This document shows, in pieces, positions 11,070 through 38,287 of a DNA stretch of 64,000 bases. The DNA lies in contig CAWAZX010000025.1 in assembly GCA_963786455.1 (NCBI GenBank), positions 179,350 through 243,349 on the forward strand, in the 5' to 3' direction. The notes below the pieces were generated by a model. The model was given only the letters and a program-made list of their open reading frames with translations, was not told the DNA's origin and did not search any database. Both the position numbers and the translations under genes were made by a program. The first letter of the stretch is position 1. Each line of letters begins with the position of its first letter. Origin of the DNA: an uncultured Planctomycetota bacterium (lineage in GTDB: Bacteria; Planctomycetota; Planctomycetia; Pirellulales; Lacipirellulaceae).

Positions 11070-11105
11070 CGTCTTCATCATTTTCACGAGGCGCAAGCAC
11101 GAACT

Positions 11106-12800: not shown

Positions 12801-12813
12801 CTCGTGAAACTCA

Positions 12814-13590
12814 ATGGGGCAGCCGCAGCCGCAGACACCGACGACATCCTCTGACAACAGTACACGGCGGGTCGAACCAGTTCCGCCGGCACTGCGCGAA
12901 AAATTCGAGCTCGATCCGTTTTACCAGAAGTACGTCGACGCAGGCGGATTGCCGATCCTCAGCTCGGCCAAGGTATCGCCGGCGGGACTTTTGGAGGCGG
13001 CCTATCTGATCGACCAGATGCTGGCCAATCGTGAAGACGTTCGCCAGGAGATGATCAAGCGGCGCGTGCGGTTCGTCGTCATGGCGCCAACCGAAATGAC
13101 CACCGACGTGCCCGAGCAATCGCACATGGACAGGAGTACTGGGACCGGCGGGCCCGCGGCCTGGGCGGCCGCATTTGTTCATGCGGCGAAGAGAATCTGC
13201 TCAACCTGCCGGGCGACCGCTACTCCAAAGAGAACATTCTCATCCACGAGTTCTCGCACACGATCCACAACTATGGCCTGCGGCGACTGGATGAAGGGTT
13301 TCAACAAACGCCTGACCGAACTCTTCAACGCCGCCAAGGAGAAAGGTCTGTGGCAAGACACGTACGCCGCGTAGCAATCCGGAAGAGTACTGGGCCGAGG
13401 CCGTGCAATCGTATTTCGATTGCAATGCGCCGCCGCGACGTCGTGTTCACAACGAGATTGAACACGCGAGGAGCTGAAGGAATACGACCCGGAATTGTTC
13501 CAACTGATCGACGAGTCGTTCAAAAGTCCCCCGTGGCGATATGTCCGTTACGACAAGCGCCAAAGCACGGCGGCCTCGTCGCCTCAGTAA
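12814..13590 (+). CDS. HExxH gluzincin-like protein of unnamed family, with no visible signal peptide; 3-4 frame breaks; paralog of 44624-46214
   Basis: REKFELDPFYQKYVDAGGLPILSS...RVRFVVMAP...ENLLNLPGDRYSKENILIHEFSHTIHNYG...NPEEYWAEAVQSYFDC...NTREELKEYDPELFQLIDESF. The HExxH motif plus a downstream EYWAE resemble MtfA/M90-type gluzincins. That family link is an inference. Confidence 0.55.
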
Positions 13591-13611
13591 AGACGAATTA
13601 GCGGCGGGGTC

Positions 13612-13654
13612 CGCCACGGCGGATTCGCCGTGGCGAGCTTGCCCCGCGCGGGGC
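13612..13654 (+). terminator. two tandem GC-rich hairpins after the HExxH gene, with no U-tract
   Basis: CGCCACGGCG-GATT-CGCCGTGGCG is a perfect 10-bp stem at 13612-13635. It is followed by GCCCCG-CG-CGGGGC at 13641-13654, 22 nt after the stop at 13590. Confidence 0.4.
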
Positions 13655-13781
13655 ATCCGAACACCCTTGCCACGCCAAATTCGCTCCGACGAATGCGGCG
13701 CCTGCTGGACTTTTACTCTCAATTAAATCATCATAAGGTTCGGATTCTTGTGCACAATGTAAACTCATCGGGGAGCAATCG

Positions 13782-16247
13782 ATGACAGCCAAGTTTACCG
13801 TGAACGCCTCGTGGATTTCTGCGTTCGTATTGTCTCTCGTCGTCCTGAATGCGAACGGACTCAATGCGGTGGCCGATGATTCGCTGCTGCAAAACGCGGA
13901 TGACACCGCAGTTTTAAACGACTTCGACACGCTATCTGACGACGAACAACCGCAATCTCCACAACAGCGGCGAGGTCGCGGCTTTGGAATGCAGGGCGTG
14001 TATAAAGCGCGGCTCGAACCCAATTGGTTCAGCGACAACACGCGATTTTGGTACCGCAATGATCTGGCGCGATCGCAGCAAAGAATTCGTGATCGTCAAT
14101 GCGGCGAGGCGGCGAGCGCGGGGCCGCATTCGATCATGAAAAACTGGCGGCGTCCCTCTCAAAAGCCGCCGAGACAACCTATGAAGCCAATCGGCTGCCG
14201 TTCAATCGCATCGAGTTCACCGATGGTGCAAAGTCCGTGCGATTCGTCGCCGGCGAATCGCAATGGGAGTGCAATCTCGAACGTACGAGTGCGCGAAAGT
14301 CGGCCCGGCGCCCGAAGACAGACAACGATGACGACGAACAAGGCGACGGTCGCGGCAATCGTCGTGGCCGGCGATTCGGCCGAGGCGGCGACCGGCGCGG
14401 TGCCGGCGGCGGGCCGTCTCCCGATGGCAAGTGGAACGCATTTGTCCGTGATAACAACGTTTATGTTCGCGCCAGCCGGCAGCGAAGACGAAAACACCGA
14501 AAACAGCGAACGGCCCGCCGTCGAATTTCAACTCAGCACGGACGGCACCGAAGAAGCCCGCTACGGAATGCTGCAGTGGGCGCCCGATTCCAAAACGCTC
14601 GTCGCATTCCGCATCGAACCGGGCGACCGCAAGGAAGTCTATCTCGTCGAGTCGTCGCCCTCCGGCGGCGGCCGGGCGAACTCTGCGCAGCCGGCCATAC
14701 GACCTGCCCGGCGACAAGCTCACGTCCTACGAGCTGAATGTGTTCAATATCGAGACGAAGAAGCAGATCAAGACCGAACGTCGACAAGATTGACCTCCAC
14801 TTTCCACGTATTTCTTGGAATCGCGACGGCCGGCACTTCGCCTATGAAAAGGTCGACCGCGGCCACCAGCGGTTGCGGATCATCGACGTCGATGCGCACA
14901 CCGGCGAGACGCTTCAACATCATCGACGAGAAGACCGAGACGTTCATCTGGACCGCCCACGCCGAGAACGTCGACCTGGAGCGCATCAACTGGCTGCCCG
15001 ACAGCCGACGAGAGCGATTTACGTCTCCGAGCGCGACGGCTGGCGGCACCTGTACTGGTCGACGCCAAAAAGGGCGGCATCAAGAACCAGATCACCAACG
15101 GCGAGTACGTCGTCCGCGGCATCGACCGCATCGACGAGGAGAAGCGGCAGATCTGGTTCCACGCCAGCGGCAAGAATGCCGACCAGGATCCGTACTTCAT
15201 CCACTACTACCGCGTCAACTTCGACGGCACGGGCCTGGTCGCGCTGACCGAGGGCAACGGCAATCACTCGGTGCAGTTTTCGCCCGACCGCAAGTACCTG
15301 ATCGACACCTACAGCCGCGTCGATCATGCCGCCGATGCACGAGCTGCGCCGCACCGACGGACGGCAAGCTCGTCTGCGAGCTCGAAGAGGCCGACGTCAC
15401 CGAGCTGATGGAGCGCGGCGACTACCATCCGCTGGAAGTCTTCGTCGCCAAGGGCCGCGACGGCAAGACCGACATCTGGGGCGTCATCTGCCGGCCGCGC
15501 GATTTCGATCCCGAGCAAGAAGTATCCGGTCATCGAATCGATCTACGCCGGGCCGCAGGGCTCGTTCGTGCCCAAGTCGTTCAGCGGCGGCAATCGCTAC
15601 GCGTCGCTGACCGACTTGGGCTTCATCGTCGTGCAGATCGACGGCATGGGCACGGCCAACCGCTCCAAGGCGTTTCACGACGTCTGCTGGCACAACCTCA
15701 AGGACGCCGGCTTCCCGGACCGCATCCTGTGGATCAAGGCGGCCGCCGCGAAGTATCCCGTACATGGATACTCAGCCGCGTCGGCATCTACGGCGGCTCG
15801 GCCGGCGGGCAGAACGCGGCGGCCGGCGTGCTGTTCCATCCCGAGTTCTACAAGGTCGCCGTCGCCGGCTGCGGCTGCCACGACAACCGCATGGACAAGG
15901 CCTCGTGGAACGAGCAGTGGATGGGCTACCCCGTCGGGCCGCAGTACGCCGAGTGCTCGAACATCGACAACGCCGCACCGGCTGCAAGGCAAGCTGATGC
16001 TGATCGTCGGCGAGCTGGACAACAACGTGCCCGCCGAATCGACGCTTCGATTGGCCGACGCGCTGATCAAGGCCGGCAAGGATTTCGACCTGGTCGTCGT
16101 GCCCGGCGCGGGCCACGGCATGGGCGGCGAGTACGGCACGCGGCGGATGCACGACTTCTTCGTCCGCCATTTGCTCGGCACCGAACCGCCCGATCGCAAT
16201 GTGCCGAGGGAAACCCGAGTCGCACGACAAACTTCCGGGGCGAATGA
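13782..16247 (+). CDS. S9 family serine peptidase, dipeptidyl-peptidase IV type; at least 9 frame breaks, although the start frame happens to stay open to the stop
   Basis: GGGGAG lies upstream of the ATG, and there is a signal peptide [17 protein letters not shown]-terminal propeller motifs include [18 protein letters not shown] and [12 protein letters not shown]. Catalytic part: [15 protein letters not shown] (GxSxGG), [12 protein letters not shown] and [12 protein letters not shown]. The TGA at 16245-16247 overlaps the next ATG. Confidence 0.8.
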
Positions 16248-20259: not shown

Positions 20260-22773
20260 TCAGTCGATGTAAAGAAACTCGTTCAGGTTCATCGCCAGGA
20301 GGCAAAATTTCTGTAAAGCAAGCTCGCTATTCATTCCGTGTTCGTTTTGAATGCGGCTGATGAAATCGACGCCGCGCTGGATCTCCGTCAGTGGTCGGCT
20401 CGCGCTGTGTGACGCGAGATAGAACAATGCGGACTTGCTCCGCCGCGTCGTCGGCCGCCTGCTCTCGCACGTCGGCCGCGAAAATCGCGGCTTGTTCGTT
20501 GAGGAATTCGCTGTTGAGCATGGTGAGTGACTTGTGTCGGCTGAGTCGTCGCGAACCGCACCGGGCAACTCGAATCGGTGTCGGCTGCGTCGAACACGGC
20601 CAATAGCGGCACGGAGAGCGAACGCTTCACATGAATGTAAACACTGCGGCGGGCTTCTTCTTCTGCGGTCGAACGGCCCCAGCCTTGGCCGGGCCGCGAT
20701 TGTCCTGCCAGCACGTCTTTGGCGATGGTCGGATAGATGCTCGGGCCGCCGCACTTCGGGTTGAAATTGCCGCTCACCAACAAAACGGTATCGCGTATTT
20801 CCTCCGCGCCGAGCCGCCGCAGTTCAAAGTGCGTGAACAAATCGTTCGCAACGTCGCTCTCTGCTGCTTCGCGTCGAGCCAACGCTCGACATTTGGTACG
20901 CGCTCGACATCACCATTAGTTTGTGCATCGGTTTGAGCCGCCAGCCATTGGCGATCAGTTCCGTGGCCAGCCAGTCGAGCAGCTCCGGGTGGGTTGGCGG
21001 GGTGCCGCCGTAGCCGAAATCGCTCGTCGACCGGACGAGGCCCCGGTTGAAGTGGTGGTGCCACAGCCGATTGGCGATCACGCGTGCTGTGAGTGGGTTT
21101 TCCGAACTGGCGATCCAATCGGCCAGCACGCGCCGTCGGCCGGACGATTCGGAGTCCTCTGCCGGTGGCGGGATGGTCGGGGAAATCGACGTGATGACCG
21201 ACGGGAAGCCTGGCTCGACCTCGTCGCCCTCGGCATACGGACTGCCGCGCAACAGAACGTGCGTTGGCGGCGGGTCCGCGCCGCGCTCGGACACACACAA
21301 TGCCCGCGCTAATCGATTCGGGCGATTCTCTTCGAGTCGCTGGCGATCGCGGAGCAAGTGCTCGTAACGCTCGAGCTCTTCCGCGCTAATGTCCTTGGGC
21401 GAATGGTTGCGGACGATTGGCGGACGATAGTCCTTTGCTTTGAAGTCGTCGACTTCGGCTCCGACAAGAAACGGGACGACGGAATCCTCGATGACCTTGA
21501 TTTGCTTCTCAACTTCGCGGACGCGCCGCCTGTAACCGGCCACCTCACGAGGGTCTTCGGCCACTTGGCCCGGCATCATGCCGATGGGTCGCGTCGAGCC
21601 ACGAACGCCGCGGCGGATGCCGCGGAAGAAGGCCAGCATGCGGTAGTAGTCCTCGGTCGGCAGCGGGTCAATCTTGTGGTCGTGACACCGGGCGCAGTTG
21701 ATCGTAAGGCCTAAAAACACCTGGCAGGTGGTCGCCATGATGTCGTCCAGCTCATCGAACTCGGCTTGCAGCCGGTCCGGCGCCCCGCCGTCCATGGCAC
21801 CTAGCCGGTAATAACCGGTCGCAATGATTGCTTCCGGCGACTCTTCCTCCAGCTCGTCCCCGGCAAGCTGCTCGCGGATGAACTGGTCATACGGTTTGTC
21901 CGCATTGAACGAGTCGATAACGTAATCGCGGTACCGCCACACTTCGGGTTTCAGGCTGTCGAATTCGTAACCGTTGGTCTCGGCATAGCGCACGAGATCG
22001 AGCCAGTGTCGGCCCCAACGTTCGCCATACTGTGGCGAAGCAAGCAGGCGATCTACAACTTTTTCGTACGCGCCCGGCGATTCGTCAGCGAGAAACTCGT
22101 GCACCTCGTCCGGCGTCGGTGGCAGTCCAATTAAGTCGTAGTACACGCGGCGCAACACTGTTGTCCGGCTGGTCGGTGACACTGGTGCCAGCCCGGCGGA
22201 TTCCATCTTGGACAACAAAAATGCATCGACCGGCGTCTTTACCCATGTCGTGTTGGCAACAGCCGGAACCTCCAGTCGGCGAATCGCCTGGAACGACCAA
22301 AACGCGCGGGCGTGGTCATCGACTTTCGGTGGCCCGGAGTGTGCCGCACCGGCTTCCGAAGTACCCCATGGTGCGCCCATCTCCACCCAGCGGGTCAGAA
22401 TATCGATCTGTGATTGGGGTAGTTTCCCTTTGGGGGGCATCTCCAAATCTTCGTAGCGAATCGCACGTAGCAGCGCGCTATCGGCGAGATTCGTTTCATC
22501 GATGATCGGCCCGCTATCCCCGCCGCGCAGCACAGTGTCGCGCGTGGTCAAGTTCAGTCCGCTTTCCAACTCATGGCCGGTACGCGGCGCGTGGCACGAA
22601 TGGCAATGCGCCCGCAGGATCGGAAGTACCTGGGTGTCGAAGAAACGTGCACCTTCTGCAGCTGCCTGTGGCGTCGCAGAGTTATCGTCCGCCCGCAATT
22701 CGACAGCGGAGAAGAGCGGCAATAGCGCGGCTGCGGCGCATATTCGTTTTCGGATCGAGATGCGTGATTCCAT
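20260..22773 (-). CDS. PSCyt1 (planctomycete cytochrome c) / DUF1549 / DUF1553 protein; about 3 frame breaks near the C-terminal end
   Basis: Intact for 649 aa from 22773. It has a signal peptide, then FFDTQVLPILRAHCHSCH (CxxCH), a DUF1549-like WSFQAIRR...VDAFLL, and a DUF1553-like INCARCHDHKIDP. The C-terminal end continues through ORFs 20388-20882 and 20260-20754 to ...NLNEFLYID-stop. This is the classic partner of DUF1501. Confidence 0.85.
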
Positions 22774-25626: not shown

Positions 25627-27548
25627 CTAAGGTTCGGTCACTTCGATCAGGCGATCGACGGCCGAAACGTCGACTTCCTGCTTCCCGCCGCGCGGCCAGT
25701 GCACGGTGACGCCCCGCACCTTGTCATCGCGGCCCAAACCGAACGTGACGGGCAGCTCGACCTGCGAGAGATAGCTCCGCGAGGGCATCACTTGCTGGCG
25801 CAGCGTGCGGTCCTCGAGCTCGACTGTCGATCCAGGCACCGATCGCGTCGCGGTTCGACTTGGTCCCGGTGAGTTTGAATCGCAGCCAATGATGGCCGAG
25901 CTCTTGGTCGTTGCGCAACAGCCGCGGCGGCTGACCGGTGGCGGTCACCAGGACGTCCAGATCGCCGTCGCCGTCGATGTCGGCGTAGCGGCGCCGCGGC
26001 CGACCAGCGGCTTGAACAGATCGGGGCCCGCATTGCTTTTCGGTGACGCGGCAGAAACTCCGTGTCGGCCTGCGGGCCCGCAGTTCCAGAACAGGTGCGG
26101 CGGCTGCTCGTAGTGCTGGCTCGGCTGCACGCGATTGATGTCCTCTTCCAGATGGCCGTTGGCCGTGAGCAGGTCGAGCCGGCCGTCGAGGTCGTAGTCG
26201 AAATAGAACAGGCCGAACGTCAGCGAGGTCCGCGTGCTGGGCCCGAGGCCGGTCGGAATCGCTTCGTCCATGAACTGCATTTCGATCGCCGTAGGAGACA
26301 TAGAGAGCGGTCATCTCGTTGGCGAAGTTGCCGATGGCGATGCCCAGCGCGTCGTCGTCGCGGAAGCGGGCGACGTCGATGCCCATCGCGCCGCGGGCGT
26401 TGCCGTTCATGTCGAAGGCGACGCCGGATTGCAGCGGCGATTTCGCGGAACGTGCCGTCGCCTTCGTTGTGGAACAGGAAGTTTTGCACCGTGTCGTTGG
26501 CGACGACGATGTCGATCCAGCCGTCCGCATCGACGTCGGCGAACGTCGACGCCCAGCGACTTGGCCAGCGGCACGTCGGTGTCGGGATTGCGAATGTGCA
26601 GGCCCGCCTGCTTCGGCGACTTCGCGAAAGCGGCCGTCGCCGTCGTTGCGATAGAGATAGGGGAAGGTGCCCTCGAAGTTCTGCGGCCGGCCGTAGGCCC
26701 GGCCGCCGCCGGTGAGCTGAAAGTTCTGGCCTTCGTCGTATTCGCGCGACCAGTGAACGTAGTTGCAGACGAACAGATCGAGATCGCCGTCGTTGTCGTA
26801 GTCGAACCAGCCGCAGCAGGTGCTCCAATGCGTCGCTCGTCGCCGCCGACGCCGCTCGCTCGGTGACGTCGCGAAATTTGCCGTCGCCCTCGTTGTGGAA
26901 CAGGCGGTTGGTGCCGACCGCGGAGAGGAACACGTCGACGCGCCGTCGTTGTCGTAGTCGCCGACGGCGACGCCCATGCCGTAGAGCGACGACGTCGAGG
27001 CCCGAGCCGGCGGTGACATCTTCGAAGTTGCCCGTGCCGTCGTTGCGGTAGAGAGTCGCCGAGGTGGCGATGAGCCGGGACCGACGACTTCTCCGCTCCC
27101 GCTCCTTGCTCCTTGCTTTCATCCCACGGCCAGTGCGCGAGGCTGTTGACGAACAGCAAGTCTTGGTCGCCGTCGTTGTCGAAGTCGAAAAACGCGCAGC
27201 CGCCGCCCATCGTTTCCGGCAGCAGCTTGCGACCGTTGGCCGCGTTCTCGTGGCGAAACGTGATGCCGGCCTGCTTCGTGACGTCGGTGAAGCGAACGTG
27301 CGGGACCGCGCCGGCCGGCATGCGCGGACCTGCGACTTCCGCCAGCTCCGTTTGCTGGACCGGCTTGTCCTCGGCGCTTCGGCCGAAGCATAGTACACGG
27401 CCGCACCGATCGCGACCGCTGCGACGACGAAGCACGGCCAGCGACCAGCGCAGCGCGACGCCGATGATCGCGTCATCGCGTTCGAGCGTGTCCGGATCGA
27501 ACTTCGTCCGGAACGATTGCGTCTGGTTTCGACGATATCGCGACTCAC
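25627..27548 (-). CDS. TM-anchored CRTAC1-family protein (FG-GAP/VCBS + ASPIC/UnbV); at least 8 frame breaks
   Basis: GTG start at 27548 preceded by GGGAGG. TM segment WPCFVVAAVAIGAAVYY. Also VRFTDVTKQAGITFRHENA...LLPETMGGGCAFFDFDNDGDQDLLFV and LYRNDGTGNFEDVT. UnbV tail: GHHWLRFKLTGTKSNRDAIGA...SRSYLSQVELPVTFGLG...VTVHWPRGGKQEV. Confidence 0.8.
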
Positions 27549-30476
27549 GGTGCACCTCCCGCCGATGATCGACCGCAGCTTCTGCTGCGGCTCTGAGCAC
27601 TGTCGACTCGAGTCCCGGCGCGCCGGGCCGCTGCAGCGGATACTTCACGACGGCCTCGGCCGCGTGATTGGCGGCCGGATACCGCTCGCGGGCCAGTCGT
27701 TCGGCCCGGCCTTGGGCATTGTCGTCCGGCTTGTAGCGCAGGTGCAGCCGCTCGTGCTCGCGCGACTTCTCGGTGTCGCCCAGTTCGGCATACAGGAGCT
27801 GCAGATTGTGATGGGCCGTCACGTTTTCGGAATCGATTGCGAGCGTTCTTCTGGAACGCGTCGACCGCTTCCTGCCAGGCCTGCGCGCGCCTCGTTCGGT
27901 CCGGCCTTGCCGTGCCCGCAGCCGGCCCAGATCGAACAGCGTCTGCCCGAGCAGGTTGATCACTTCGTAATCGAAGCTGAAGTCGAAGCCCGCGCTGCTG
28001 CATATCCGCGCGTGCGGTCCTCGAGCACGCTGCGCAGATTGACGAATCGCTTCGTCAAGCCGGCCCTGCTGGCGATTGATGTCGCCGCTGAGCCAGGCCC
28101 AGGTCCAGCGCGGATAGCCTTCCTCGTCGCGGAACTGCATCCGCACGCTGCAGTGCCGCCACGGCTTCGTCGAGCCGCCCTTCGGCGTTGTACACGCGGG
28201 CCAGATTCATCGGCCCGTCCCAGCGCTTCAGCTGCTTCGACTTGGGTGAATGCTTCGGCGGCCTGCCGCAGCTCCGCCTTGCCCTTCAGCAACAGGCCGA
28301 TGCCGTAGTCGTTCCAGCGCTGCCAAGCGGGAATGTCGCGGTCGGGATTTCGACACGCTGGCCTCGACGCCCGCGACGGGAAACGTCACGCGATCGACGG
28401 CCAGCGTCGTGATCGGCAGCTCGTTGCGATACGGCCTGCCCGGCTACGTGGCCGCGGATTGGCGGTTCGTTCGCCCGAGCGCTTGTGATCTCGTCATTCT
28501 TCTGCGCGACGAAATCCATGTACCGCTGGTCGAACTTGCGGTACTGCAGCTTGACTTCGACCGTCACCGGCGCGTCCAGATCTTCCGGCACGTGCAGTTC
28601 GTAGTGCACGGTCTGGCCGGCGCCCGGCGGAATCTGATGGTTGTACAGCGGCGTGAAAATGTCTTGCGGGTTGCGGCGGTCGATGCGGTTGCCGTCTTTG
28701 TCGAGCATGAACACGTTGACGAAGTGCGCCCAGGGATCGACTTCGTTGCCGCGCTCGGGATCGAGTGCGCCGCTGCGGCCGATCACGCGGTCGCCGGAGG
28801 TCACCGTCACGTCGAGCCAGACTTCGTTCGAGTCGGCCGTGCCCTGCGTGAACAGGTGACCCAGCTTGAGCGTGCGGATCACCGTTTCCAGCAGGTACTT
28901 CTTGCCCGGCTCAAGCGTCGGCACCTCCGGCCGCAGCGGCGCGATCAGCTTGCCGTCGATCTCGCCGCCCTCGCGCACGCCGAACATATCGACGCGCATC
29001 ACGCCTTTCAGGAACTCCTGATGCGCGGCGATCGACGTCCGGCCGGTCGCGCAGCCAGGCGACGCCCGTGTTGGCCGCCGGGAACAGGTGGTTGTGGACG
29101 CTCAGCTCGGTCGGCGCCGGCGAAAAGCTTCGCGCCGAAATCGCCCGAGGGCTTGAGCGGCATGTGGCAGCCGCTGCAGTTCGCCTCCGCCTTGGGCGGA
29201 TAGTAAAAGCTGCGCGCCCCGTGGCCCGAAACGCCGCTCAGCAGGAACGGATCGTAGTGGTTCTGCCCGCGCAGGAATTCCTTGTAGTGGTTCAGCTCCA
29301 GCGGCAGGTGCACCTTGTGGCAGGTCGAGCAGAACTCGGCCGTGCGATGGAAGTCCTTCAGGAACGTCTTCTTGTGGAACGCCGGCTTGGCCTTCACGAG
29401 CTGGTTGTTGACCCACTGCAGCAACGGCGTTGTCGCTGAAGGCGAACGGGTAATGCAGCGGCTCTTCGATCGTGTAGTCGGCGTTGCCGCGCGTGCTGTT
29501 GACGTGGGTGATCGCGTGGCACACCGTGCAGGTGATGCCGGCGTGGGCCGTGGGATGGCTGACGTGTCGAACTTCGGGTCGTCGAACGCGCCGCTGAAGA
29601 ACGGCACCGGGTCGTGGCAGCCGGCACACCAGCGCGACGCCTGCACGTTGCCGTCGCGCTTCAGCGACACCTCGCGCGTTTCGGTGACGCTGGCCAGGTA
29701 CGGCGGGTTGTTGAACGAGCTGAAGCGGTGCACGCTGTCGCTCCACTGGGCATGCACGTCGGCGTGGCACTTCTGGCAGTACTGGTCGTTCATCAGCGCT
29801 GTCGGCCGGGATGAAATTGCCGGTGGCCGTGCGGGCCAGCGACGGCTCAAAATACTTGCACGCCCGATTCCGGCCCGATCGCGTACCACTGCCGCGGGTC
29901 TTGCGCGTGGAACCAGACCATGCCCAGCACGACCGCGCCGACGAATGCCGGCATAGCCCAGTCCGAGCCGCCACTTGATCCGCGGCCCGGCCAGCCGATG
30001 CAGCCAATACAGCCAGGCGGCCAGCCAGCGGACAGGCCACATGCAGCCAGTATACAGTGTTGCGGGCCAGCGGTTGCCGCAGATCGAACCCGCCCATGCG
30101 CATCAGCAGCACGCCCGTGACCAGCACGGCGATCGAGACGGCAAACAGCGCGTAGCCGATGCGTACCGCGCGGCGGTTGCGCCGATTCCTCGCGACAGCC
30201 AGATGCAGCGATGCCGAACACGACAAACGGCACAACCAGCACGAGGCCCAGCACCAGGTGGCCCAGGAACATGTACTGGTAGAAATAGTTCTGATACGTG
30301 CGGCCGGTCGACCACTCCACGGCGGTGACCGCTGCAAGATATGCCGAGTTTGCACCCAGCAGGGCCACAAGCGCAAAGATGAAGTACAGCAGCTTGCGCA
30401 GGCGCGGTCCGACCGCGCGCACGTATTTTTTCGGCGGTGGGCTCGAAGTACCAGGGCTAAAAGTTTCGACCGACAT
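27545..30476 (-). CDS. membrane-anchored pentaheme c-type cytochrome fused to a TPR C-terminal region; at least 10 frame breaks
   Basis: N-terminal TM helices (LLYFIFALVALLGANSAYLAAV, YMFLGHLVLGLVLVVPFVVFGI). Five CxxCH motifs: CQKCH, CAGCH, CTVCH, CSTCH, CSGCH. A middle domain follows (LGHLFTQGTADSNEVWLDVTV...), then TPR-like repeats (AWQEAVDAFQK..., NLQLLYAELGD). The candidate stop TGA at 27545-27547 overlaps the downstream GTG (GTGA). Confidence 0.75.
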
Positions 30477-30642: not shown

Positions 30643-31035
30643 CTACGTGCGCGGGGGATGATCAATTCGCGAAGGAAAGCCCCTCGCTGTTCGAGCTTTG
30701 AGACATGTCAAGATCGCATCTGGAAGAGTCAGCGTCCGCAGTGACGCCGAGCCAGCAAGAAGGGCCGATTCGGGCGCCGCGAAGGAGAATCCGGGGGCTG
30801 CCGGAGTTGCCGGATGGTCTGGCGCTTGCCGACAATGGGGGCCGTTGCAAGGCACTCGCTGCGAGGAATCGGGAGAGCTTTCAGCCCGCCGCGCGTGTAC
30901 GGCGTTCGAGAACTTCGAAGCGCTTTGCTCAGATGATAAGGAGGTACCCGAACCGGTCGAATGTGCTAGCCAATCACCGCACGACGCAAACGCCGTCGAC
31001 GTGCCAGCCACAACGTTCAAGGCCAGCAGCTGCAT
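30643..31035 (-). CDS. small secreted Cys-motif protein, copy A (unassigned family)
   Basis: Intact ORF. Signal-like MQLLALNVVAGTSTAFA, then SCGDWLAH...VPCNGPHCRQAPDHP...GFPSRIDHPPRT-stop. It aligns without gaps to copy B over a 113-aa mature length. It lies directly upstream of, and co-directional with, the pentaheme cytochrome gene. Confidence 0.7.
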   Translation of the reverse strand: MQLLALNVVAGTSTAFASCGDWLAHSTGSGTSLSSEQSASKFSNAVHARRAESSPDSSQRVPCNGPHCRQAPDHPATPAAPGFSFAAPESALLAGSASLRTLTLPDAILTCLKARTARGFPSRIDHPPRT

Positions 31036-31276
31036 CCCGACCAAAAATATGGCGCAGGATCGTCACGTACAACGAGCCCAAATTTAGGACAACGAACTAG
31101 TGAGCGGAGCCAAAAAGCTCCGGTATTCGAACGCACATACAGCTTGTTTTCAGACTAGTCCTCTAGCCGGAAACTGTCAATCAATGGCTACCCGGCGGCG
31201 ATTGTAAAACCGGCTGAAATTACAGGCGATTTTGAGTAACGCGATCAGTTCTGTCGCGGCGGAAGCGCAAAAATAC

Positions 31277-31304
31277 TTGCATTTCCTTGTGTACCGAGTA
31301 TCCT
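31277..31304 (+). promoter_or_regulatory. possible sigma70-like promoter for copy B
   Basis: TTGCAT - 16 nt - TATCCT ends 29 nt before the ATG at 31333, followed by a strong SD GGGGGGAGGG. Planctomycete promoter consensus is poorly defined, so this is weak. Confidence 0.25.
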
Positions 31305-31332
31305 ATCGGCTAGGTCCGCGGGGGGAGGGAAA

Positions 31333-31836
31333 ATGATGGGCAACCCGTTTGTCCCGCGTGCCTCGAATATTTCTCGTCTACATGTTTGGGTCTCTATGGT
31401 CGTCTTGGCCCTACATCAACGCTGTTCGGCTGTAGCGTGCGGACTTATTGGTCTCGTTGTGCTGCAGTTCGTAGCCGTCTCCCGAGCGGACGCAACCTGT
31501 GGTGATTGGCTGGCGGTGCCGGGTGAACGCCAGATGTTGGCCCATCAGAGGCCAATGGCCCACGGCGAAACAACGAATCCGTCGACTGCCAGTCAACGCG
31601 ATTCGACGCCGCTTTCAAGATCCAAGCCGTGCAACGGTCCCTATTGTCGGAGCGCACCGTTTCATCCGTCTCCCAATACGCCGGTGAGCATTACGTATCA
31701 TTCTGATCGGCTTGCCGTTTTTGTCTGTCTCGCGGGTGAGGATGCGTTGCGACTTGAATCGAAATTCTATCGCGAGCCGAACGTGTGCGCTGCTCCCGGT
31801 TTTAAGGCGCGCATCGAGCATCCTCCTCGCGTCTAA
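31333..31836 (+). CDS. small secreted Cys-motif protein, copy B (unassigned family)
   Basis: Intact ORF with a strong SD. It has a long N-terminal region + hydrophobic segment ...LIGLVVLQFVAVSRADA, then TCGDWLAV...KPCNGPYCRSAPFHP...GFKARIEHPPRV-stop. Confidence 0.7.
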   Translation: MMGNPFVPRASNISRLHVWVSMVVLALHQRCSAVACGLIGLVVLQFVAVSRADATCGDWLAVPGERQMLAHQRPMAHGETTNPSTASQRDSTPLSRSKPCNGPYCRSAPFHPSPNTPVSITYHSDRLAVFVCLAGEDALRLESKFYREPNVCAAPGFKARIEHPPRV

Positions 31837-32095: not shown

Positions 32096-33202
32096 ATGCT
32101 TACCAAACGCCTTCAACGAGGCTTCACGCTGGTTGAACTGCTCGTTGTGATCGCGATTATTGGAACGTTGGTCGCACTTTTATTACCGGCCGTTCAAGCG
32201 GCGCGGGAAGCAGCGCGGCGGAGCAACTGCCAGAATAACCTCCGGCAAATTGGCCTGGCAATTCAAAACCACGCGAACGCTTTCGGCGTGTTTCCTACTG
32301 GTGGTGCGGAAGTCAATCCGAAGATCGAGCACTACATTGCCAACGGAAAGCCATTTGGTCCCAACAAGCAAGGGCTTGGTTGGGCCTACCAGATTCTGCC
32401 TTATCTTGAGGAAGGCACGCTCCAAATTCTGGTGAAGCAGGATGAACTTCAAGCGGCGGCCATTCCGCTCTATGTGTGTCCGTCTCGGCGCACCGTGTCG
32501 TCGGCCAAGGTCGAGCGCGGAAAACCTCGGCGGGAAGCCCGTGTTTCTGATCGATTACGCGGCGGCGCAGCCGTGCACGGTGGAATGCCCAGCGGGCAGT
32601 GCCGGTTGTTCCACTCCGCCGCGCGCTACAACCCGCGAGACGCGGTACCGATCAGCCCGGCCAACTATGAAATCAACTGGCCGTCGCTTTGGGGAGGCAA
32701 GAATCCGAATTTCCGGCTGCAGGCGCACAACCAGGTGTACGACGGCGTCATCGTCCGGTCTGCCTGGCGCCGAAACGATCCGCTGTTTACGCATGGAGCG
32801 CCGGGTGGTGGTGAGTTTCTGAGCGGCGTGCCCGCGCCGACAACCTTCGCCAAGATCATTGACGGTACCAGCAAAACGTTCATGCTCGGCGAAAAGTACG
32901 TTCGTTCGGACAGCTACCAAGGAGGGGGCTCGTCGGACGATCACGGCTGGAGCGAAGGATGGGATACCGACGTCGTTCGCTCCACGTGTTTCCAACCCTA
33001 TCCGGACAGCGACGGCTACCAGTTTCAGTCGCTGGGGGCGGACGACATTTTCGGGCACGAGAAGGATGTGGTTTATTTTGGATCGGCGCACTCCGGCGGT
33101 TTCCACGGCATCTTTGCCGACGGATCGATTCAAACGTTGAGCTACGACATCGACGTCGTGGTTTTCAATTCACTCGCCACGCGCAGGACAGGAAGTGGTT
33201 GA
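32096..33202 (+). CDS. DUF1559 protein with a prepilin-type N-terminal cleavage/methylation domain (planctomycete pseudopilin-like)
   Basis: Intact. [48 protein letters not shown], plus the C-terminal H-x9-DG motif [13 protein letters not shown]. Confidence 0.9.
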
Positions 33203-33288: not shown

Positions 33289-35337
33289 ATGCTTTACACC
33301 AATCAAATTGCATTGACTCGCAAAATGAATTTCAATACCCAGCGCAATCGCCTGAAATGCCCGCGCCGCATGGGCTTGGCGGTGCTGGTACTGATCCTCG
33401 CTTATTCCACGAAGAGTGCGCAAGGGGTTGAAACAGTCGCCCGTATTTGGGATGAGCAACTGCTGCACGCGATCAGTCTCGATACGGCGCGGCCGACAGT
33501 GCACGCCCGCAATTTGTATCACATGTCGGCTGCGATGTACGACGCCTGGGCCGCCTACGATAACACGGCCCGCGGATCTATATTCAAGGGAAAAACCACA
33601 GCAGTGAACATCGAGCAGGCGCGCAACGAAGCAATCAGCCATGCCGCGTTCAATATCATCTTGCACCGCTTTCACGACGGGCCTGCCGGCGTCGGCCCAG
33701 GCCGAGTACAGTCGCTTGCCGACATTCGCCAGCAGATGACGGCGCTTGGCTACAATCCGGACAACAAATCCACAGTGGGTGACTCTCCGGCCGCGTTGGG
33801 TAATCGCATAGCACAGGCCGTGATTAACCATGGTCTTGCAGATGGTGCCAACGAAGTGAACCGATACGCGACGCCCGCAGGGCAGTTCGCACGTGTGAAC
33901 CAGCCGCTAACGTTCGACCTGCCTGGTAACACGATGGTCGACAAGAACCGGTGGCAACCGCTGCATTTTCTCGGCGGCCGGATCGACCAATTTGGTCGGC
34001 CGATCAATGAATCGACGCAAGTGCACCTGTCGCCGTTTTGGGGGCAGGTGACACCATTCGCGATTACGTCCGCTGATCGCAGTGCCAACGGCGTGTACCA
34101 CGACCAAGGCACGCCGCGGCGGCTCGGCGGGGCGACGGACGCGGCGTTCAAGCAGAGAGACGCGTTGGAGTTCCTACGCATCTCTTCGCACCTGGACCCC
34201 AATGATAGTGAGATGATCGACATCTCGCCTGCTACACGCGGCAACACTCCCAATGCGCCATTCACAGAAAGTTACGCGCAGGCCGGTTACGCTTTGAATC
34301 CATTTACCGGCCAACCTTATACGCCGCAAATAGTGAAGCACGGCGATTTCGGCCGCGTTGTGGCCGAGTTTTGGGCCGACGGCCCGCGTTCGACCGCGCC
34401 ACCCGGACACTGGAATGAAATCGCCAACGACGTTTCCGACAAGATGGACTCGCTGGGAATTGCGAAACGGATTGGTGGAACCGGCCCTGTTATCAGTGAC
34501 TTGGAGTGGGACGTCAAAAAGTATCTCGCGCTGAACGGCGGATTGCACGACGCAGCCGTCGCCGCCTGGAACCACAAGGGAGTATACGATTCGGCGCGCC
34601 CAATTTCATTCATTCGCTACATGGGTCAGCTCGGGCAATCGAGTGATCCGAACCTCAAGGTCGATCTTGGCGGCGGCAACCTGGTGGATACGTACCATCC
34701 CGACGGTTTGCCGCTCGAGCCGGGTCTGGTGGAAGTAATCACACCACAAACCACAGCGGCGGGCCAACGGCACGAGCAGCTTGCCGGCCATGAGGGCAAG
34801 GTGGCCATTCGCGCTTGGCAGGGGGCTATCGACGGCATTGCCCCGTTTGACGACCCGTCCGAAATCAGCGGCGTCAATTGGATCACGGCCGAAACGTGGA
34901 TGCCGTATCAGTTGGCCGGCTTCGTTACGCCGCCGTTCGCCGGTTATGTGTCGGGACACTCGACTTTCAGCCGCACGGGCGCGGAAGTGATGGCGCTGTT
35001 TACGGGCAGTGAGTTCTTTCCCGGCGGGATCTTTGAATATGAGATTCCGATCGGAGCGGGCTTGGATTTCGAATATGGCCCGTCGGCCGCGATGAAGTTG
35101 CAGTACGCTACTTATTTCGACGCCTCGGATCAGGCGTCGATTTCGCGGATTTACGGAGGCATTCACCCGCCGGCGGATGATTTTCCCGGTCGACGGATCG
35201 GGAACATGGTGGGCCCGGACGCGTTTCATCGGTCCATGTTGTTGTTTGCAGGGGTGCCAGAACCCGCGAGCGCGCTTCTTTTTGCTGTTGCTGCAAGTTT
35301 GATGTGCGGTCTGCGAGTGCGGCGTTTCGAATCGTAG
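33289..35337 (+). CDS. PAP2-superfamily / vanadium-dependent haloperoxidase-like protein with a C-terminal PEP-CTERM sorting signal
   Basis: Intact 682 aa (an alternative start is MNFNTQ at 33325). All three PAP2 motifs are present: KGVYDSARP (Kx6RP), VSGHSTF (SGH) and SRIYGGIHPPAD (SRx5Hx3D). The N-terminal part ARIWDEQLLHAISLDTARPTVHARNLYHMSAAMYDAW is typical of bacterial VHPO-like proteins. The C-terminal end is VPEPASALLFAVAASLMCGLRVRRFES. Confidence 0.8.
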   Translation: MLYTNQIALTRKMNFNTQRNRLKCPRRMGLAVLVLILAYSTKSAQGVETVARIWDEQLLHAISLDTARPTVHARNLYHMSAAMYDAWAAYDNTARGSIFKGKTTAVNIEQARNEAISHAAFNIILHRFHDGPAGVGPGRVQSLADIRQQMTALGYNPDNKSTVGDSPAALGNRIAQAVINHGLADGANEVNRYATPAGQFARVNQPLTFDLPGNTMVDKNRWQPLHFLGGRIDQFGRPINESTQVHLSPFWGQVTPFAITSADRSANGVYHDQGTPRRLGGATDAAFKQRDALEFLRISSHLDPNDSEMIDISPATRGNTPNAPFTESYAQAGYALNPFTGQPYTPQIVKHGDFGRVVAEFWADGPRSTAPPGHWNEIANDVSDKMDSLGIAKRIGGTGPVISDLEWDVKKYLALNGGLHDAAVAAWNHKGVYDSARPISFIRYMGQLGQSSDPNLKVDLGGGNLVDTYHPDGLPLEPGLVEVITPQTTAAGQRHEQLAGHEGKVAIRAWQGAIDGIAPFDDPSEISGVNWITAETWMPYQLAGFVTPPFAGYVSGHSTFSRTGAEVMALFTGSEFFPGGIFEYEIPIGAGLDFEYGPSAAMKLQYATYFDASDQASISRIYGGIHPPADDFPGRRIGNMVGPDAFHRSMLLFAGVPEPASALLFAVAASLMCGLRVRRFES

Positions 35338-35352
35338 CAAAGCAATCTATCG

Positions 35353-37258
35353 ATGTCATCGCAACGGCTAGTGTGTAGACTTCTCCACGAAATAGCTGCT
35401 TTTCTGGCAGCGGTGGTGGTCGTTTGCGCTTGTGGTATGCCGGCGATCGCCGTGTTCTCGGATGTCACGGCAAGTGCCGGGATCAATCATTTGCAGCACG
35501 TTGGCAATGCGCCGGGGCGGGCCTGTTCCGCACCGGCGGCGCGGCCGCGGCCGATTACGACAACGACGGGTTGACTGATCTGTTCGTGACACGCCTCAAC
35601 GCGCGCCCGCTCTTGTACCGCAACCTGGGGAACGGCACGTTTCAGGACGTCGCCGTGACGGCCGGATTCACTTCCAGCCTTCCTGCCAACGGTGTGGCCT
35701 GGGGCGACATCGAGAACGACGGTGACAAGGATTTGTACGTCACGTCATCGGGCGGGACGCGGTTTTATTTGTACGTCAATAACGGCAATGGCACGTTCAG
35801 CGAACAGGCAACTCGCGCGGAGCCGCTATTTCCGGCGTGTTCCGCTACGGACAGAGTGCGACCTTCGGCGACTACGACGGCGACGGCTATCTGGATATTC
35901 ACACCAATGATTGGGCCACCGACAGCGCGGTAAGCGCGTCGCGCTTGTTGCGCAATCTTGGTGCGGCGAATCCGGGACATTTCGAGGACGTGACCGCAGC
36001 TGCTGGTCTCAATGTTTTTCGCCCCTCGCGGTTTGCGGACGGCAGCACCGATTCCAACGCTTATCGCTACTCGTCGACGTTCACGGACTTAGACCGCGAC
36101 GGCCATCCCGATCTCGCGATTGCAGCCGATTTCCTCACGAGCCAGGTCTTTTGGAACAACGGTGATGGCACGTTTACCGATGGCACTGCCGCGGCGGGCG
36201 TCGGCACCGACGAGGACGGTATGGGCAGCGCCATCGGCGACTACGACGGCGACGGTCGGCTCGATTGGTTCGTCTCCGCGCTGGTCGATGTGCCCGGCGG
36301 TCCTGCGCCACACAGCGGCAACCGCCTCTTTCGCAACAACGGCAATCGCACATTTACCGATCAGACCGACGTGGCAGGCGTGCGAAATTCCGGTTGGTCC
36401 TGGGGAACCACCTTTCTCGACCACGACAACGACCGCGACCTGGATCTGTTTGTTACTAACGGATGGGATACGACGACCAACGATCAGTCACGCCTGTTCC
36501 AAAATGACGCCGGGGTATTTGCTGACGTTTCGAATGCCGCCGGCGTCACGGACATGAAATTCGGGCGGGGGCTGGTCAGCTTTGATTATGACAACGACGG
36601 TGACCTCGATGTCTACATTGCAAATCATGGAGCGCAGCCCATTCTCTACCGCAACGACGGCGGTAACGCGAACGACTGGCTAAAGCTCAAATTGCAAGGA
36701 ACGGTTTCAAACCGAGATGGTCTAGGTGCGCTTGTTACGGTCGATCCCGACACGATGACGACGGGCGATGAAATGGTCCGCGAATTGAACGGCGGCAGCA
36801 ATTTCCTCGGGCACAATGAGTTGCTTGTTCACGTCGGCCTGGGTCCGAGCGCTGCGAACATCGACTTGATTACGGTCGCGTGGCCCAGCGGCATCGTACA
36901 GCAACTTGCGAATGTTTCGGCGAATCAGGTGTTGAACGTGATCGAAATCACCGGGCCGGCGCCGCTAGAGGGCGACTACAACGATGACCTCGTGGTCGAT
37001 GCGGCCGACTATGTGATCTGGCGCACTCAATCGGGTGAGACGGGTACCGGACTCTCGGCGGACGGCAACAACGACCAAACGGTCAATCAGCTTGATTACG
37101 ATCTTTGGAAGGCGAATTTTGGGGCGTCGGTAGGCGGTTTTGCATCCGCGGCCCAGCTTGAACTCGTGCCCGAGCCGTCGGCGGCGCTGCTGATTGTTGT
37201 CGGATCGGTAGTCGCGAGGAATCTTGTGATGTCACAACGTGTACGACGTACTGCGTAA
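35353..37258 (+). CDS. FG-GAP/VCBS repeat protein with a dockerin-like repeat pair and PEP-CTERM anchor; 2 frame breaks near the 5' end
   Basis: DYDNDGLTDLFVT, GDIENDGDKDLYV, GDYDGDGYLDIH, TDLDRDGHPDLAI, GDYDGDGRLDWFV and FDYDNDGDLDVYI. A UnbV-like stretch reads NDWLKLKLQGTVSNRDGLGA. The dockerin-like part is DYNDDLVVDAADYVIWR...DGNNDQTVNQLDYDLWKANFG. The C-terminal end is VPEPSAALLIVVGSVVARNL...RVRR. Confidence 0.8.
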
Positions 37259-37279
37259 TTCTATTTGGGAGGGCCTTTT

Positions 37280-38287
37280 ATGTTGTCTCGCAAAAGACGA
37301 GTGCGAGGTTTTACTCTGGTTGAATTGCTAGTCGTCATTGCGATTATCGGAATCCTGGTGGCCCTGTTGCTGCCGGCGATTCAAGCGGCGCGCGAGGCGG
37401 CCCGGCGATCGAGCTGTATCAACAATCTTCGCCAGATGGGTCTGGCGATGCTGAACTACGAGTCGAGCTACAGAGTCTTTCCACCATCGGACGTGTTGGT
37501 GCCCAACACGAAAACGGGTTTGCTGACGTCCTCTTTGGGATTATCCGTCCATGCACGGCTGCTGCCGTTCGTGGAAGAGGCTGGTCTTCGCAGTTTGGTG
37601 AATTTTAGCGCCGCTTATGACAATGCATCCAACGACACTGCACGGATGACACGCGTTGCCATGTTCCTGTGCCCTTCGGACGGCGGTGAAAACGCGCTTT
37701 CTACGCATCTGAAAGGGGCAGCGACTAGTTACCAGGCCAATCAAGGTTCCGGCGTAGTCTGGAGCATTCCTTCGAATCCAAGCGATCCCAACTACGCGCT
37801 CGGGCCGCCCAACGGCGTGTTGATTCGCAACGGCGGCGTGAAGACCGGCGACGTGATCGACGGCATGAGCCACACGGCCGCCTTCTCTGAGCGGGTTGTC
37901 GGCGACGGTGACCAAGGCACGGTCACCGAAGCGAGCGACACATTTGCACCAGGCTCCACGCATCCGGGAGTCGAGAAGGCCTACCAGGATTGTCTGGCCG
38001 TCAACATCAGCGACCTCGCGAGGCAGGGATATTCCGACGTTGGTTTTCCTTGGATTCAGTCGTACCACAGCGCGACTATTTATTACCACAACATGCCGCC
38101 TAACGGCCGGTCCTGCATGTATCCGCCGGGCCAGATCATGACCACCGCCAGCAGCCGGCACAGTGGCGGCGTGAACGTGATGATGTGCGACGGCTCGGCT
38201 CGTTTCGTGTCCAACGATGTCAGCCGGCCCACCTGGCAAGCGCTGGGCAGCCGCAATGGCGAAGAGATCATCAACGAGCAGTTTTGA
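37280..38287 (+). CDS. DUF1559 protein with a prepilin-type N-terminal methylation domain
   Basis: Intact, with GGGAGGG upstream of the ATG at 37280. [44 protein letters not shown], plus [13 protein letters not shown] (H-x9-DG). Confidence 0.9.

Follow-up and report, generated by a model that had tools for sequence, protein, structure and literature searches.

The window analysed here is a stretch of 64,000 nucleotides (64 kb) from an uncultured Planctomycetota bacterium (contig CAWAZX010000025.1), and it carries two small divergent genes, which we call gene A (minus strand) and gene B (plus strand). Judged from their sequences and those of their relatives, both are genuine genes and paralogous members of an undescribed family of small proteins predicted to be exported through the Sec pathway. 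Each predicted mature chain begins with a C-G-D-aromatic motif, carries a pair of Cys in a CxGPxC motif further on and closes on a Pro-rich motif almost at its C-terminus. The family members head gene clusters in which CRTAC1-type beta-propeller genes recur, and the role that we tentatively prefer for them is that of a partner-bound periplasmic accessory subunit.

Genes A and B and their relatives

BLASTP aligned the two proteins at E = 1e-16 with 34% identity. The predicted mature chains, beginning SCGDWLAH in A and TCGDWLAV in B after cleavage behind AFA and ADA respectively, are 113 aa each, and the gapless alignment reported in an earlier note on this DNA, together with its list of shared columns, was reproduced exactly. 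Identical columns are 2-7, 45-49, 51-52, 54-55, 57-58, 102-103, 106-107 and 109-112, and the alignment contains 33 identities as against 8.2 ± 2.7 (maximum 21) in 20,000 shuffles. The equal length of the two chains is partly coincidence, since the mature chains of other divergent pairs are unequal (108 and about 113 aa at locus L002, 105 and 107 aa at locus L008).

The same note had drawn attention to different codons at the conserved residues. This difference is real and extends over 12 genes from 10 loci, in which all 11 invariant columns use two to five synonymous codons. Invariant residues encoded by varied synonymous codons imply selection on the protein, and the proposal that A and B are paralogues kept by selection on their motifs, and not a DNA repeat, therefore holds. 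The contrary idea, that the two frames are chance open reading frames (ORFs) lying over conserved non-coding DNA, or assembly artefacts, could appeal to the many frame breaks in the window, to the absence of gene A from the protein collection described below and to the failure to call its orthologue in L002-L007. It does not account for amino-acid motifs that are kept while codons vary, for at least 155 diverged homologues that share the architecture or for a signal-peptide and cleavage pattern that is consistent across the family, and the window has no match to any Rfam family. We hold this idea to be extremely improbable, and the codon variation and the homologues refute it in practice.

A word-indexed search with B returned 13 relatives, all of them labelled 'hypothetical' and without Pfam domains. 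Exhaustive phmmer searching with A against 1.84 billion representatives gave 155 relatives at E < 1e-3, 17 of these at E < 1e-10; nearly all are 120-210 aa long and the match reaches their last-but-one residue. The family thus comprises at least 155 clusters at 50% identity, and a profile search added further members beyond the phmmer set. Its named sources are few, being metagenome-assembled genomes of Pirellulales and Schlesneria (Planctomycetota), and all members that bear any name are 'hypothetical protein'. The family statistics given throughout were drawn from an alignment of 143 sequences, and the tests of the signal site were made on 142 members. The family profile matched gene A at E = 4e-39 and gene B at E = 1.7e-39, and these were the only two copies that it found in the window.

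No family could be named in the earlier note, and Pfam, NCBIfam and the Protein Data Bank (PDB) were likewise negative for the pair and for the 143 members. A and B have no Pfam match at E <= 10, and 0 of the 143 members has a Pfam-A match at E <= 0.01. NCBIfam returned only noise for the pair (LpqN, E = 0.084) and, over the 143 members, two isolated single-member matches near E = 0.01 which we judged to be noise as well. The 143-member profile, when run against 177,635 PDB sequences, found nothing better than a spurious match to large T antigen (E = 9.8). Literature searches on UnbV/ASPIC, DUF1559 and CRTAC1 in bacteria turned up no description of the family. Two scans of the GTDB species-representative genomes with back-translated motif patterns yielded no confirmed relative, which says little on true absence because the patterns were narrow and followed B-type wording; a motif-pattern scan of metagenomes added locus L001 only.

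As a working definition, a family member has a signal peptide ending in AxA, the motifs (S/T)CGD(W/Y)L and PCxGPxC, and (D/E)(H/R)PP(R/K/Q) within nine residues of the C-terminus, with the PP motif 56-62 residues past the second Cys, and it is the first gene of a cluster containing CRTAC1 or DUF1559. Both A and B show every one of these sequence features as well as the gene order. The features that define curated hidden Markov model families, lipoproteins, c-type cytochromes, thioredoxin-like proteins and the small subunits bearing tryptophan tryptophylquinone (TTQ) or cysteine tryptophylquinone (CTQ) were all absent, the sole fit being the generic class of proteins secreted by Sec and signal peptidase I. 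By these sequence comparisons the family is placed outside all the described families considered, and is new as a family, while its mode of action may prove to be an ordinary accessory-subunit role.

The divergent arrangement of A and B given in the earlier note was confirmed, but the gene starts were not: the frame of A opens at the TTG at 31044, and B probably begins at 31396. From the ATG at 31035, which had been taken as the start of A, the protein would have 130 aa. We aligned the DNA with that of the L002 orthologue (1587-1994, minus strand; the L008 orthologue lies at 2059-2460, also on the minus strand) and found one extra base between the GTG at 31066-31064, homologous to the start codon of the orthologue, and the CGDW codons of A. 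Since this homologous start is one nucleotide out of frame, the open frame of A begins internally, at a TTG or ATG, and the signal peptide that it encodes has 17-20 aa and no basic n-region. Dropping one T from a T5 run restores a signal peptide of 27 aa, the same length as in L002. The 5' end of gene A is damaged relative to this orthologue. For gene B, the ATG at 31396 is most likely the true start, as this codon and the N-terminal sequence are kept in the orthologues (three loci); it would give a protein of 146 aa with a 33-aa signal peptide. A GGAGG-like sequence precedes the alternative start at 31333, and the mature chain is identical with either start. Depending on which starts are taken, the spacer between the two genes measures about 290-350 bp.

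Both ORFs had been described as intact, and this was counted in their favour. The 5' frameshift of A relative to L002 contradicts the description, and intact ORFs of 400-500 nt are weak evidence of selection because the neighbouring gene switches frame about once per 500 bp, so that escape by chance is possible. The protein encoded by B is 100% identical to P0001 (NCBI, ENA); an exact look-up of the A protein with four possible N-termini in a collection of 15 billion proteins found none of them present. Public gene callers skipped the A-type gene in L002-L007 altogether, and either called the B-type gene from an internal Met (99 aa as against about 144) or predicted a spurious ORF on the other strand. 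The family is systematically under-annotated, its genes being missed or shortened by the callers.

Cleavage site, motifs and chain architecture

Position -3 of the predicted cleavage site is Ala in 121 of the 143 sequences and position -1 is Ala in 133, while the residue after the site is Ser or Thr in 136 and is followed by the invariant Cys. A strict site (A/V/S at -3, A/G at -1) was found in 133 of the 142 members tested. The relaxed (-3,-1) rule was satisfied by 141 of 142, which bears out the signal-like segment noted earlier in both proteins and makes it a Sec-type signal peptide with AxA directly before (S/T)-C-G-D. Because a near-invariant AxA site stands directly before it, the mature N-terminus is predicted to be (S/T)-C-G-D-(W/Y)-L-x-H, and we conclude that the family is probably exported by Sec and processed by signal peptidase I to expose this start.

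A cysteine at this place could also be lipidated after cleavage by signal peptidase II, in which case the protein would be a lipoprotein and serve as the membrane-tethered anchor of a complex. The invariant Cys does end a hydrophobic signal segment after A-(S/T/A/G), and a permissive, PROSITE-like lipobox pattern fits 52 of 142 members. However, the classical lipobox [LVI][ASTVI][GAS]C occurs in 24 of 142 as against 141 of 142 for the AxA signal peptidase I pattern one residue upstream, -1 is Thr in 39 of 143, and the residue at position -3 of such a lipobox differs widely between members, with charged or polar residues frequent (F, S, H, R, E, Q). We therefore give lipidation little credence.

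The motif columns first noticed in the pair are conserved in the family alignment. In the numbering of A, C22-G23-D24, C66, C71 and P130-P131 are invariant in the 143 sequences, and A18 and A20 (the AxA site), L26, P65, G68, P69, P75, P78 and G122 are nearly so. The aromatic residue of motif 1 is W in 114 and Y in 29 of the 143, with H in one further member (L012), and L is found in 137. Motif 2 has the consensus P-C-x-G-P-x-C-R-x-A-P...P..P.P and motif 3 has G-F-P-x-R-I-(D/E)-(H/R)-P-P-R; PP(R/K/Q) is followed by exactly one last residue in 100 of 143 members.

The linker between the first two Cys (C2 to C46 of the mature chain) varies from 27 to 61 residues and is rich in A/S/G/T/D/P. From the second Cys of CxGPxC to PP, on the other hand, the distance is 56-62 residues in all 143 sequences, and this stretch is more hydrophobic. 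Since the second distance is fixed and the first linker variable, the protein is not three motifs set in random filler. As read from these alignments, its architecture consists of an N-terminal peptide exposed by processing, then a flexible tether, then a C-terminal module whose length, about 75 aa, is fixed. The statement that everything between the motifs is unrelated was thus too strong: the length of the C-terminal stretch is constant throughout the family, and members of the A subfamily share sequence in it as well (PE.ALL...R.(Y/L)TLPD).

AlphaFold2, supplied with 77-row alignments, gave no fold for full-length A (predicted local distance difference test, pLDDT, 66; predicted template-modelling score, pTM, 0.18) or for mature B (pLDDT 66, pTM 0.19), and in both its confidence climbed over the motifs only. 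These models predict a protein without an autonomous fold and with a disordered spacer, and they are so poor that fold searches with them would be meaningless.

The His residues counted among the fixed Cys/His positions in the earlier note are not strictly conserved. His8 of the mature chain is present in 93 of 143 members (65%), and position 129, the His of HPPR in A, is H in 87 and R in 53 (37%). The H/R swap at position 129 argues against a metal ligand and suits a protein contact better, and motif 3 looks like a contact of this kind instead of a metal site. With respect to the cysteines, exactly three are found in 59 of the 143 mature chains, and a single disulfide cannot use all of an odd number. 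Two familiar classes of Cys-containing periplasmic protein were considered and rejected. A c-type cytochrome would need CxxCH (or CxnCH), and the residue after CxGPxC is mostly R, Q, G, S or D, with His in 3 of 143 only. A thioredoxin or Dsb oxidoreductase would have CxxC, while the spacing here is Cx4C, with no thioredoxin match in Pfam and no predicted fold.

Gene neighbourhood and the predicted role

At every locus with a readable gene table, a cluster of genes on one strand begins with the family member. In the type-1 cluster (L011, L015, L016, and on the minus strand of L008, L002 and the window, where gene A is the small gene) it is followed by a pentahaem/tetratricopeptide repeat (TPR) protein of about 950-1000 aa and then by a protein of the CRTAC1 family (about 610-640 aa). 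In the large protein, four to five N-terminal transmembrane helices, in which His and Trp are conserved, are followed by five CxxCH motifs and, towards the C-terminus, by TPRs, and the layout is constant: CxxCH lies at 233, 283, 316, 382 and 433 in the three orthologues from L016 (4270-7113), L015 (10653-13544) and L011 (10503-13493). Its PDB relatives were limited to generic TPR repeats, and it looks like an undescribed quinol-linked pentahaem protein. The CRTAC1-family protein combines one transmembrane anchor with FG-GAP and UnbV_ASPIC domains, and the L016 orthologue matches the structure of human CRTAC1 (9etn) at E = 8e-14. The predicted topology places haems, TPRs and propeller alike on the periplasmic side, behind their transmembrane anchors.

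In the type-2 cluster the small gene is followed by a DUF1559 pilin-like gene (N_methyl and SBP_bac_10 domains), a gene for a protein of about 125 aa, genes for STAS-like and CMD-like proteins or for proteins of unknown function, and a gene for a CRTAC1-family protein of about 760-790 aa. The full cluster is present on the plus strand of the window, on the P0004 contig and in L017, and the first genes are alike in L008 (plus strand), L012, L014 and the P0008 contig. The distal CRTAC1-family protein of the window has a counterpart of 786 aa with the same Pfam domains at the same position of the P0004 contig, and one of 762 aa in L017. The divergent pair itself is conserved in the metagenomic loci L002-L007 and L008, and partially in L001. 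A link to such neighbours had been suggested in the earlier note, and pentahaem cytochrome/TPR, CRTAC1 and DUF1559 genes were indeed found beside family members. Locus L009 has a third arrangement, in which the small gene is followed by genes for a CcoG/FixG-like polyferredoxin membrane protein and a YtkA lipoprotein and then by two FG-GAP proteins. The L009 region (10569-14317) also encodes, behind the family member, a His/Trp-rich membrane protein of 241 aa and a protein of 207 aa, with the FG-GAP/CRTAC1 genes after them.

We tentatively favour, with rather less than even confidence and from sequence and synteny only, a reading in which the family protein is an extended, partner-bound periplasmic accessory subunit or ligand of the complex encoded downstream of its gene. 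Signal peptidase I would cut after AxA to expose (S/T)-C-G-D-(W/Y)-L-x-H, and the exported chain would then act as an extended strap or ligand on a membrane-anchored complex. On the A side this complex would consist of a cytochrome-b-like/pentahaem-c/TPR electron-transfer protein and a CRTAC1-type FG-GAP beta-propeller, and on the B side of a longer propeller of the CRTAC1 type together with the DUF1559 pilin-like protein and small accessory proteins. That motifs 2 and 3 keep a fixed spacing may mirror two docking points at a set distance on the partner. The N-terminal C-G-D-aromatic motif and the CxGPxC pair could form a site that works through thiols, be it a disulfide, a metal site (for instance for Cu(I)) or a haem ligand, or else a peptide or plug that docks on the propeller. 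The guess made in the earlier note, a metal-, haem- or disulfide-handling accessory factor or a ligand of the propeller proteins, would agree with this gene order. Each paralogue would serve its own operon, and the two operons would be driven from back-to-back promoters. CRTAC1 is most likely the ultimate partner because almost every cluster contains it. TPR and propeller surfaces typically bind Pro-rich peptides and motifs close to a C-terminus. In non-anammox bacteria, CRTAC1-family FG-GAP genes have also been reported to lie between genes that encode haem-containing homologues of the subunits of hydrazine synthase (PMC12758564), and this arrangement is a further case of CRTAC1-type propellers travelling with multihaem proteins.

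Several observations weigh against this reading. A neighbour-joining tree of 15 members does not cleanly part the two operon types, so that partner-specific subfamilies are unsupported by it. Between the small gene and its successor lie 68-279 nt, a long gap for an operon, and co-transcription is an assumption; no conserved terminator or hairpin was found in these gaps. At locus L012 the nearest 10 kb contain no CRTAC1 gene. Planctomycete genomes are rich in CRTAC1 and DUF1559 genes. This abundance would inflate casual co-occurrence, although it leaves the strict immediate adjacency unexplained. Finally, the C-terminal module could be a small domain that AlphaFold misses owing to the shallow alignment.

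The first position of the gene and the long gap behind it would also suit a secreted regulator or signal that is expressed from a promoter of its own, is sensed outside the cytoplasm and controls how the downstream genes are expressed or their products assembled. The divergent spacer has conserved promoter-like blocks, one towards each gene (Table 1), and CAAAAA..CTTGCA.....TTGTG.ACCGAGTA..CT, the longest conserved block of the spacer, is invariant in the window, L002 and L008. Together the blocks at 31152-31304 could be back-to-back promoters or the site of a shared regulator. A generic promoter-consensus scan called neither of them, and its sites were no more numerous than in shuffles. What speaks against a regulator is that neither a sensor kinase nor an anti-sigma factor nor a regulator is a regular neighbour (an extracytoplasmic function sigma factor occurs only in L011, 5 kb off and on the other strand), that no terminator or attenuator structure lies behind the gene, and that a fixed-length 75-aa module is unusual for a signal peptide. 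With regard to RNA structure, the nine 3' flanks of small genes showed no common hairpin, terminator or attenuator, and their folding z-scores ranged from +0.4 to -2.1. A regulatory role is in our judgement improbable.

A periplasmic metallochaperone or metal buffer is somewhat more plausible, even though we think it unlikely. The three Cys and Asp4, often together with His8, would bind metal, most likely Cu(I), the chain would fold round it, and the metal would be passed to the downstream enzymes. This overlaps with the accessory-subunit reading and differs in that the function would be metal delivery and not stable docking. In its favour are the three invariant Cys and one invariant Asp, the Cys counts given above and the disorder predicted for the isolated chain; PcoE and SilE-type periplasmic metal binders are disordered when alone. 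The L009 cluster, headed by a family member, hints by analogy at a copper or electron-transfer link, CcoG and YtkA types being linked to copper handling for oxidases, and in L011 a VIT1 metal transporter gene lies directly upstream. Against it, copper-related neighbours are seen at one locus of about ten, there are no Met- or His-rich tracts, His8 and the His at position 129 vary as described, and the best-conserved stretches are Pro-rich and resemble protein-docking peptides. A simple chelator, moreover, needs no C-terminal module of strictly fixed length.

The composition of the type-1 operon raises another alternative, in which the protein is the small subunit of a new redox enzyme of the periplasm and carries a cofactor or cross-link. 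It would be analogous to the small subunit of methylamine dehydrogenase (MADH), with its TTQ, or to that of quinohaemoprotein amine dehydrogenase (QhpC), with its CTQ and Cys cross-links. The multihaem protein would convert Cys2, Asp4 and Trp5 post-translationally into a redox cofactor or a cross-link, with the product seated on the beta-propeller. An invariant C-G-D with an aromatic residue stands at a fixed place in the mature chain, and the operon joins a small protein, a multihaem c-type cytochrome and a beta-propeller; MauG/MADH and QhpABC share a trio of small protein, multihaem or di-haem protein and propeller, which we take as a lead only. On the other side, 29 of 143 members have Tyr in place of Trp and the L012 member has His, nothing similar to MauA or QhpC came up in the PDB search, no radical-SAM protein, MauG-like di-haem peroxidase or flavoprotein maturase is listed in the gene tables of the 10 loci, and the type-2 operons have no haem protein. 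These points make such a subunit very doubtful.

The positions of the genes, motifs and spacer blocks discussed are collected in Table 1.

Table 1. Features of the family genes, their spacer and their cluster partners in the window
Feature	Position	Strand	Basis and remarks
Gene A, small exported protein, type-1 copy	30643..31044	-	ORF list; 133 aa from TTG, stop codon included
A signal peptide as encoded, LVGMQLLALNVVAGTSTAFA, ending AxA	30985..31044	-	Translation
A motif 1, SCGDWLAH, predicted mature N-terminus	30961..30984	-	C, G, D invariant in 143
A variable linker, S/A/G/T-rich	30853..30960	-	Family spacing; pLDDT < 50 for residues 30-40
A fixed-length C-terminal module, PCNGPHCRQAPDHPATPAAP (30793-30852) to GFPSRIDHPPRT (30646-30681)	30646..30852	-	C66, C71, P130, P131 invariant
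GTG homologous to start codon of L002 orthologue	31064..31066	-	DNA alignment with L002; +1 out of frame with gene A
Putative promoter-like block towards A, TTGACA-17 nt-TAGTCT	31152..31180	-	Blocks CTGTCAATCAA and TCAGACTAGTCC conserved with L002, partly with L008
Putative promoter-like block towards B, TTGCAT-16 nt-TATCCT, preceded by A-tract	31277..31304	+	Conserved in window, L002, L008
Gene B, small exported protein, type-2 copy	31333..31836	+	ORF list; longest ORF 167 aa
B signal peptide, MVVLALHQRCSAVACGLIGLVVLQFVAVSRADA	31396..31494	+	Translation; N-terminal pattern kept among B-type orthologues
B motif 1, TCGDWLAV	31495..31518	+	Family column statistics, translation
B fixed-length C-terminal module, PCNGPYCRSAPFHPSPNTPV (31627-31686) to GFKARIEHPPRV (31798-31833)	31627..31833	+	Family spacing
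A-side partner: 4-5 transmembrane helices, five CxxCH haem motifs, C-terminal TPR	27601..30476	-	tblastn of intact orthologues from L011 (996 aa), L015 (963 aa), L016 (947 aa)
A-side CRTAC1-family FG-GAP/UnbV_ASPIC propeller, last cluster gene, frame-broken	25633..27498	-	Pfam FG-GAP_3; tblastn of L011, L016 orthologues
B-side partner: DUF1559 pilin-like (N_methyl + SBP_bac_10)	32096..33202	+	Pfam E = 4.8e-39
B-side distal CRTAC1-family protein, 786 aa	40251..42611	+	Pfam FG-GAP_3 + UnbV_ASPIC

In all, the window holds three CRTAC1-family and two DUF1559 genes. By tblastn, the pentahaem/TPR gene switches frame at least six times in 2.9 kb, and two of the CRTAC1-family genes are frame-split as well, the affected regions being 25633-30476 (minus strand) and 35424-37258 (plus strand). 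Long homopolymer runs were looked for at the break sites of the pentahaem/TPR gene and no clear pattern emerged; the breaks may be assembly errors or real decay. Inside the B-side cluster, 33289-35337 (plus strand) encodes a protein of 682 aa with a DUF6851 match and a vanadium-haloperoxidase-like helical-bundle match, whose C-terminus, GVPEPASALLFAVAASLMCGLRVRRFES, resembles a PEP-CTERM sorting signal. This gene, together with a CRTAC1 gene and the second DUF1559 gene (35424-38287), appears to be an insertion relative to the P0004 contig. Elsewhere in the window, 20824-22773 (minus strand) is a planctomycete cytochrome gene of the PSCyt1/PSCyt2/PSD1 (DUF1549/DUF1553) kind, which, like the DUF1559 genes, speaks for the window being of Planctomycetota origin.

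Significance and comparison with known systems

Unknown families are common in planctomycete genomes, and this one stands out by its sharp rules and by its strict link to CRTAC1 and DUF1559. The rules are unusually sharp in that one motif is fused to the signal-peptidase site, two motifs are spaced as if by a ruler and three Cys never vary. The family is sizeable and yet neglected, with no Pfam or NCBIfam model, and a family profile would improve the annotation of planctomycetes. CRTAC1 and DUF1559 are functionally blank families, and a conserved small partner offers a concrete entry point to both.

The small subunits MauA and QhpC are, like the family, small Cys-rich periplasmic chains encoded with a beta-propeller and a multihaem or di-haem c-type protein, and the invariant Cys of the family also lies close to an aromatic residue. 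The family differs from them in that it has no detectable sequence similarity to either, its Trp is not invariant, its signal is of the ordinary Sec/AxA kind, and no genes of the MauG, QhpD, QhpE or QhpG types are found at its loci; half of its operons, those of type 2, are without a haem protein. PcoE/SilE and copper chaperones of the YtkA/CtaK and PCuAC types resemble the family in being small, exported and foldless alone with few conserved ligand-type residues, and L009 has CcoG-like and YtkA neighbours. Here the difference is that the candidate ligands of the family are three Cys and an Asp and not Met/His, that its conserved blocks are Pro-rich and that it has no Pfam match. The SoxY carriers, too, are small periplasmic proteins whose invariant Cys sits on a flexible arm at one end of the chain, and their genes accompany those of c-type cytochromes. 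In SoxY, however, the Cys lies in a C-terminal GGCGG, the fold is immunoglobulin-like and the signal is of the twin-arginine type, whereas in the family the Cys is N-terminal, no fold is predicted and no Sox genes are nearby.

A last comparison, which we offer from general knowledge and as a lead only, is with the (R/K)GD(W) integrin ligands of the disintegrin type. These also present a Cys-flanked G-D-aromatic on a flexible segment, and the CRTAC1 partner has an FG-GAP propeller of the integrin-alpha type. The two groups are not homologous, Cys and not Arg or Lys precedes G-D in the family, and no integrin-beta-like domain with a metal ion-dependent adhesion site is encoded in the operons. 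To our knowledge the biochemical role of CRTAC1 is not established, even in animals; for bacteria, the literature search yielded one paper in which the NCBI product name 'CRTAC1 family protein' is used. Taking these likenesses together, it may be speculated, although we consider it quite unlikely, that the family is the missing small subunit of an unrecognised class of periplasmic enzyme built on a CRTAC1 (FG-GAP/UnbV) propeller. Its N-terminal (S/T)-C-G-D-(W/Y) would insert into the propeller, either as a Cys/aromatic-derived cofactor or metal site that receives electrons from the pentahaem-TPR protein or as a plug resembling an integrin ligand; if true, this would provide the first functional handle on the CRTAC1 family.

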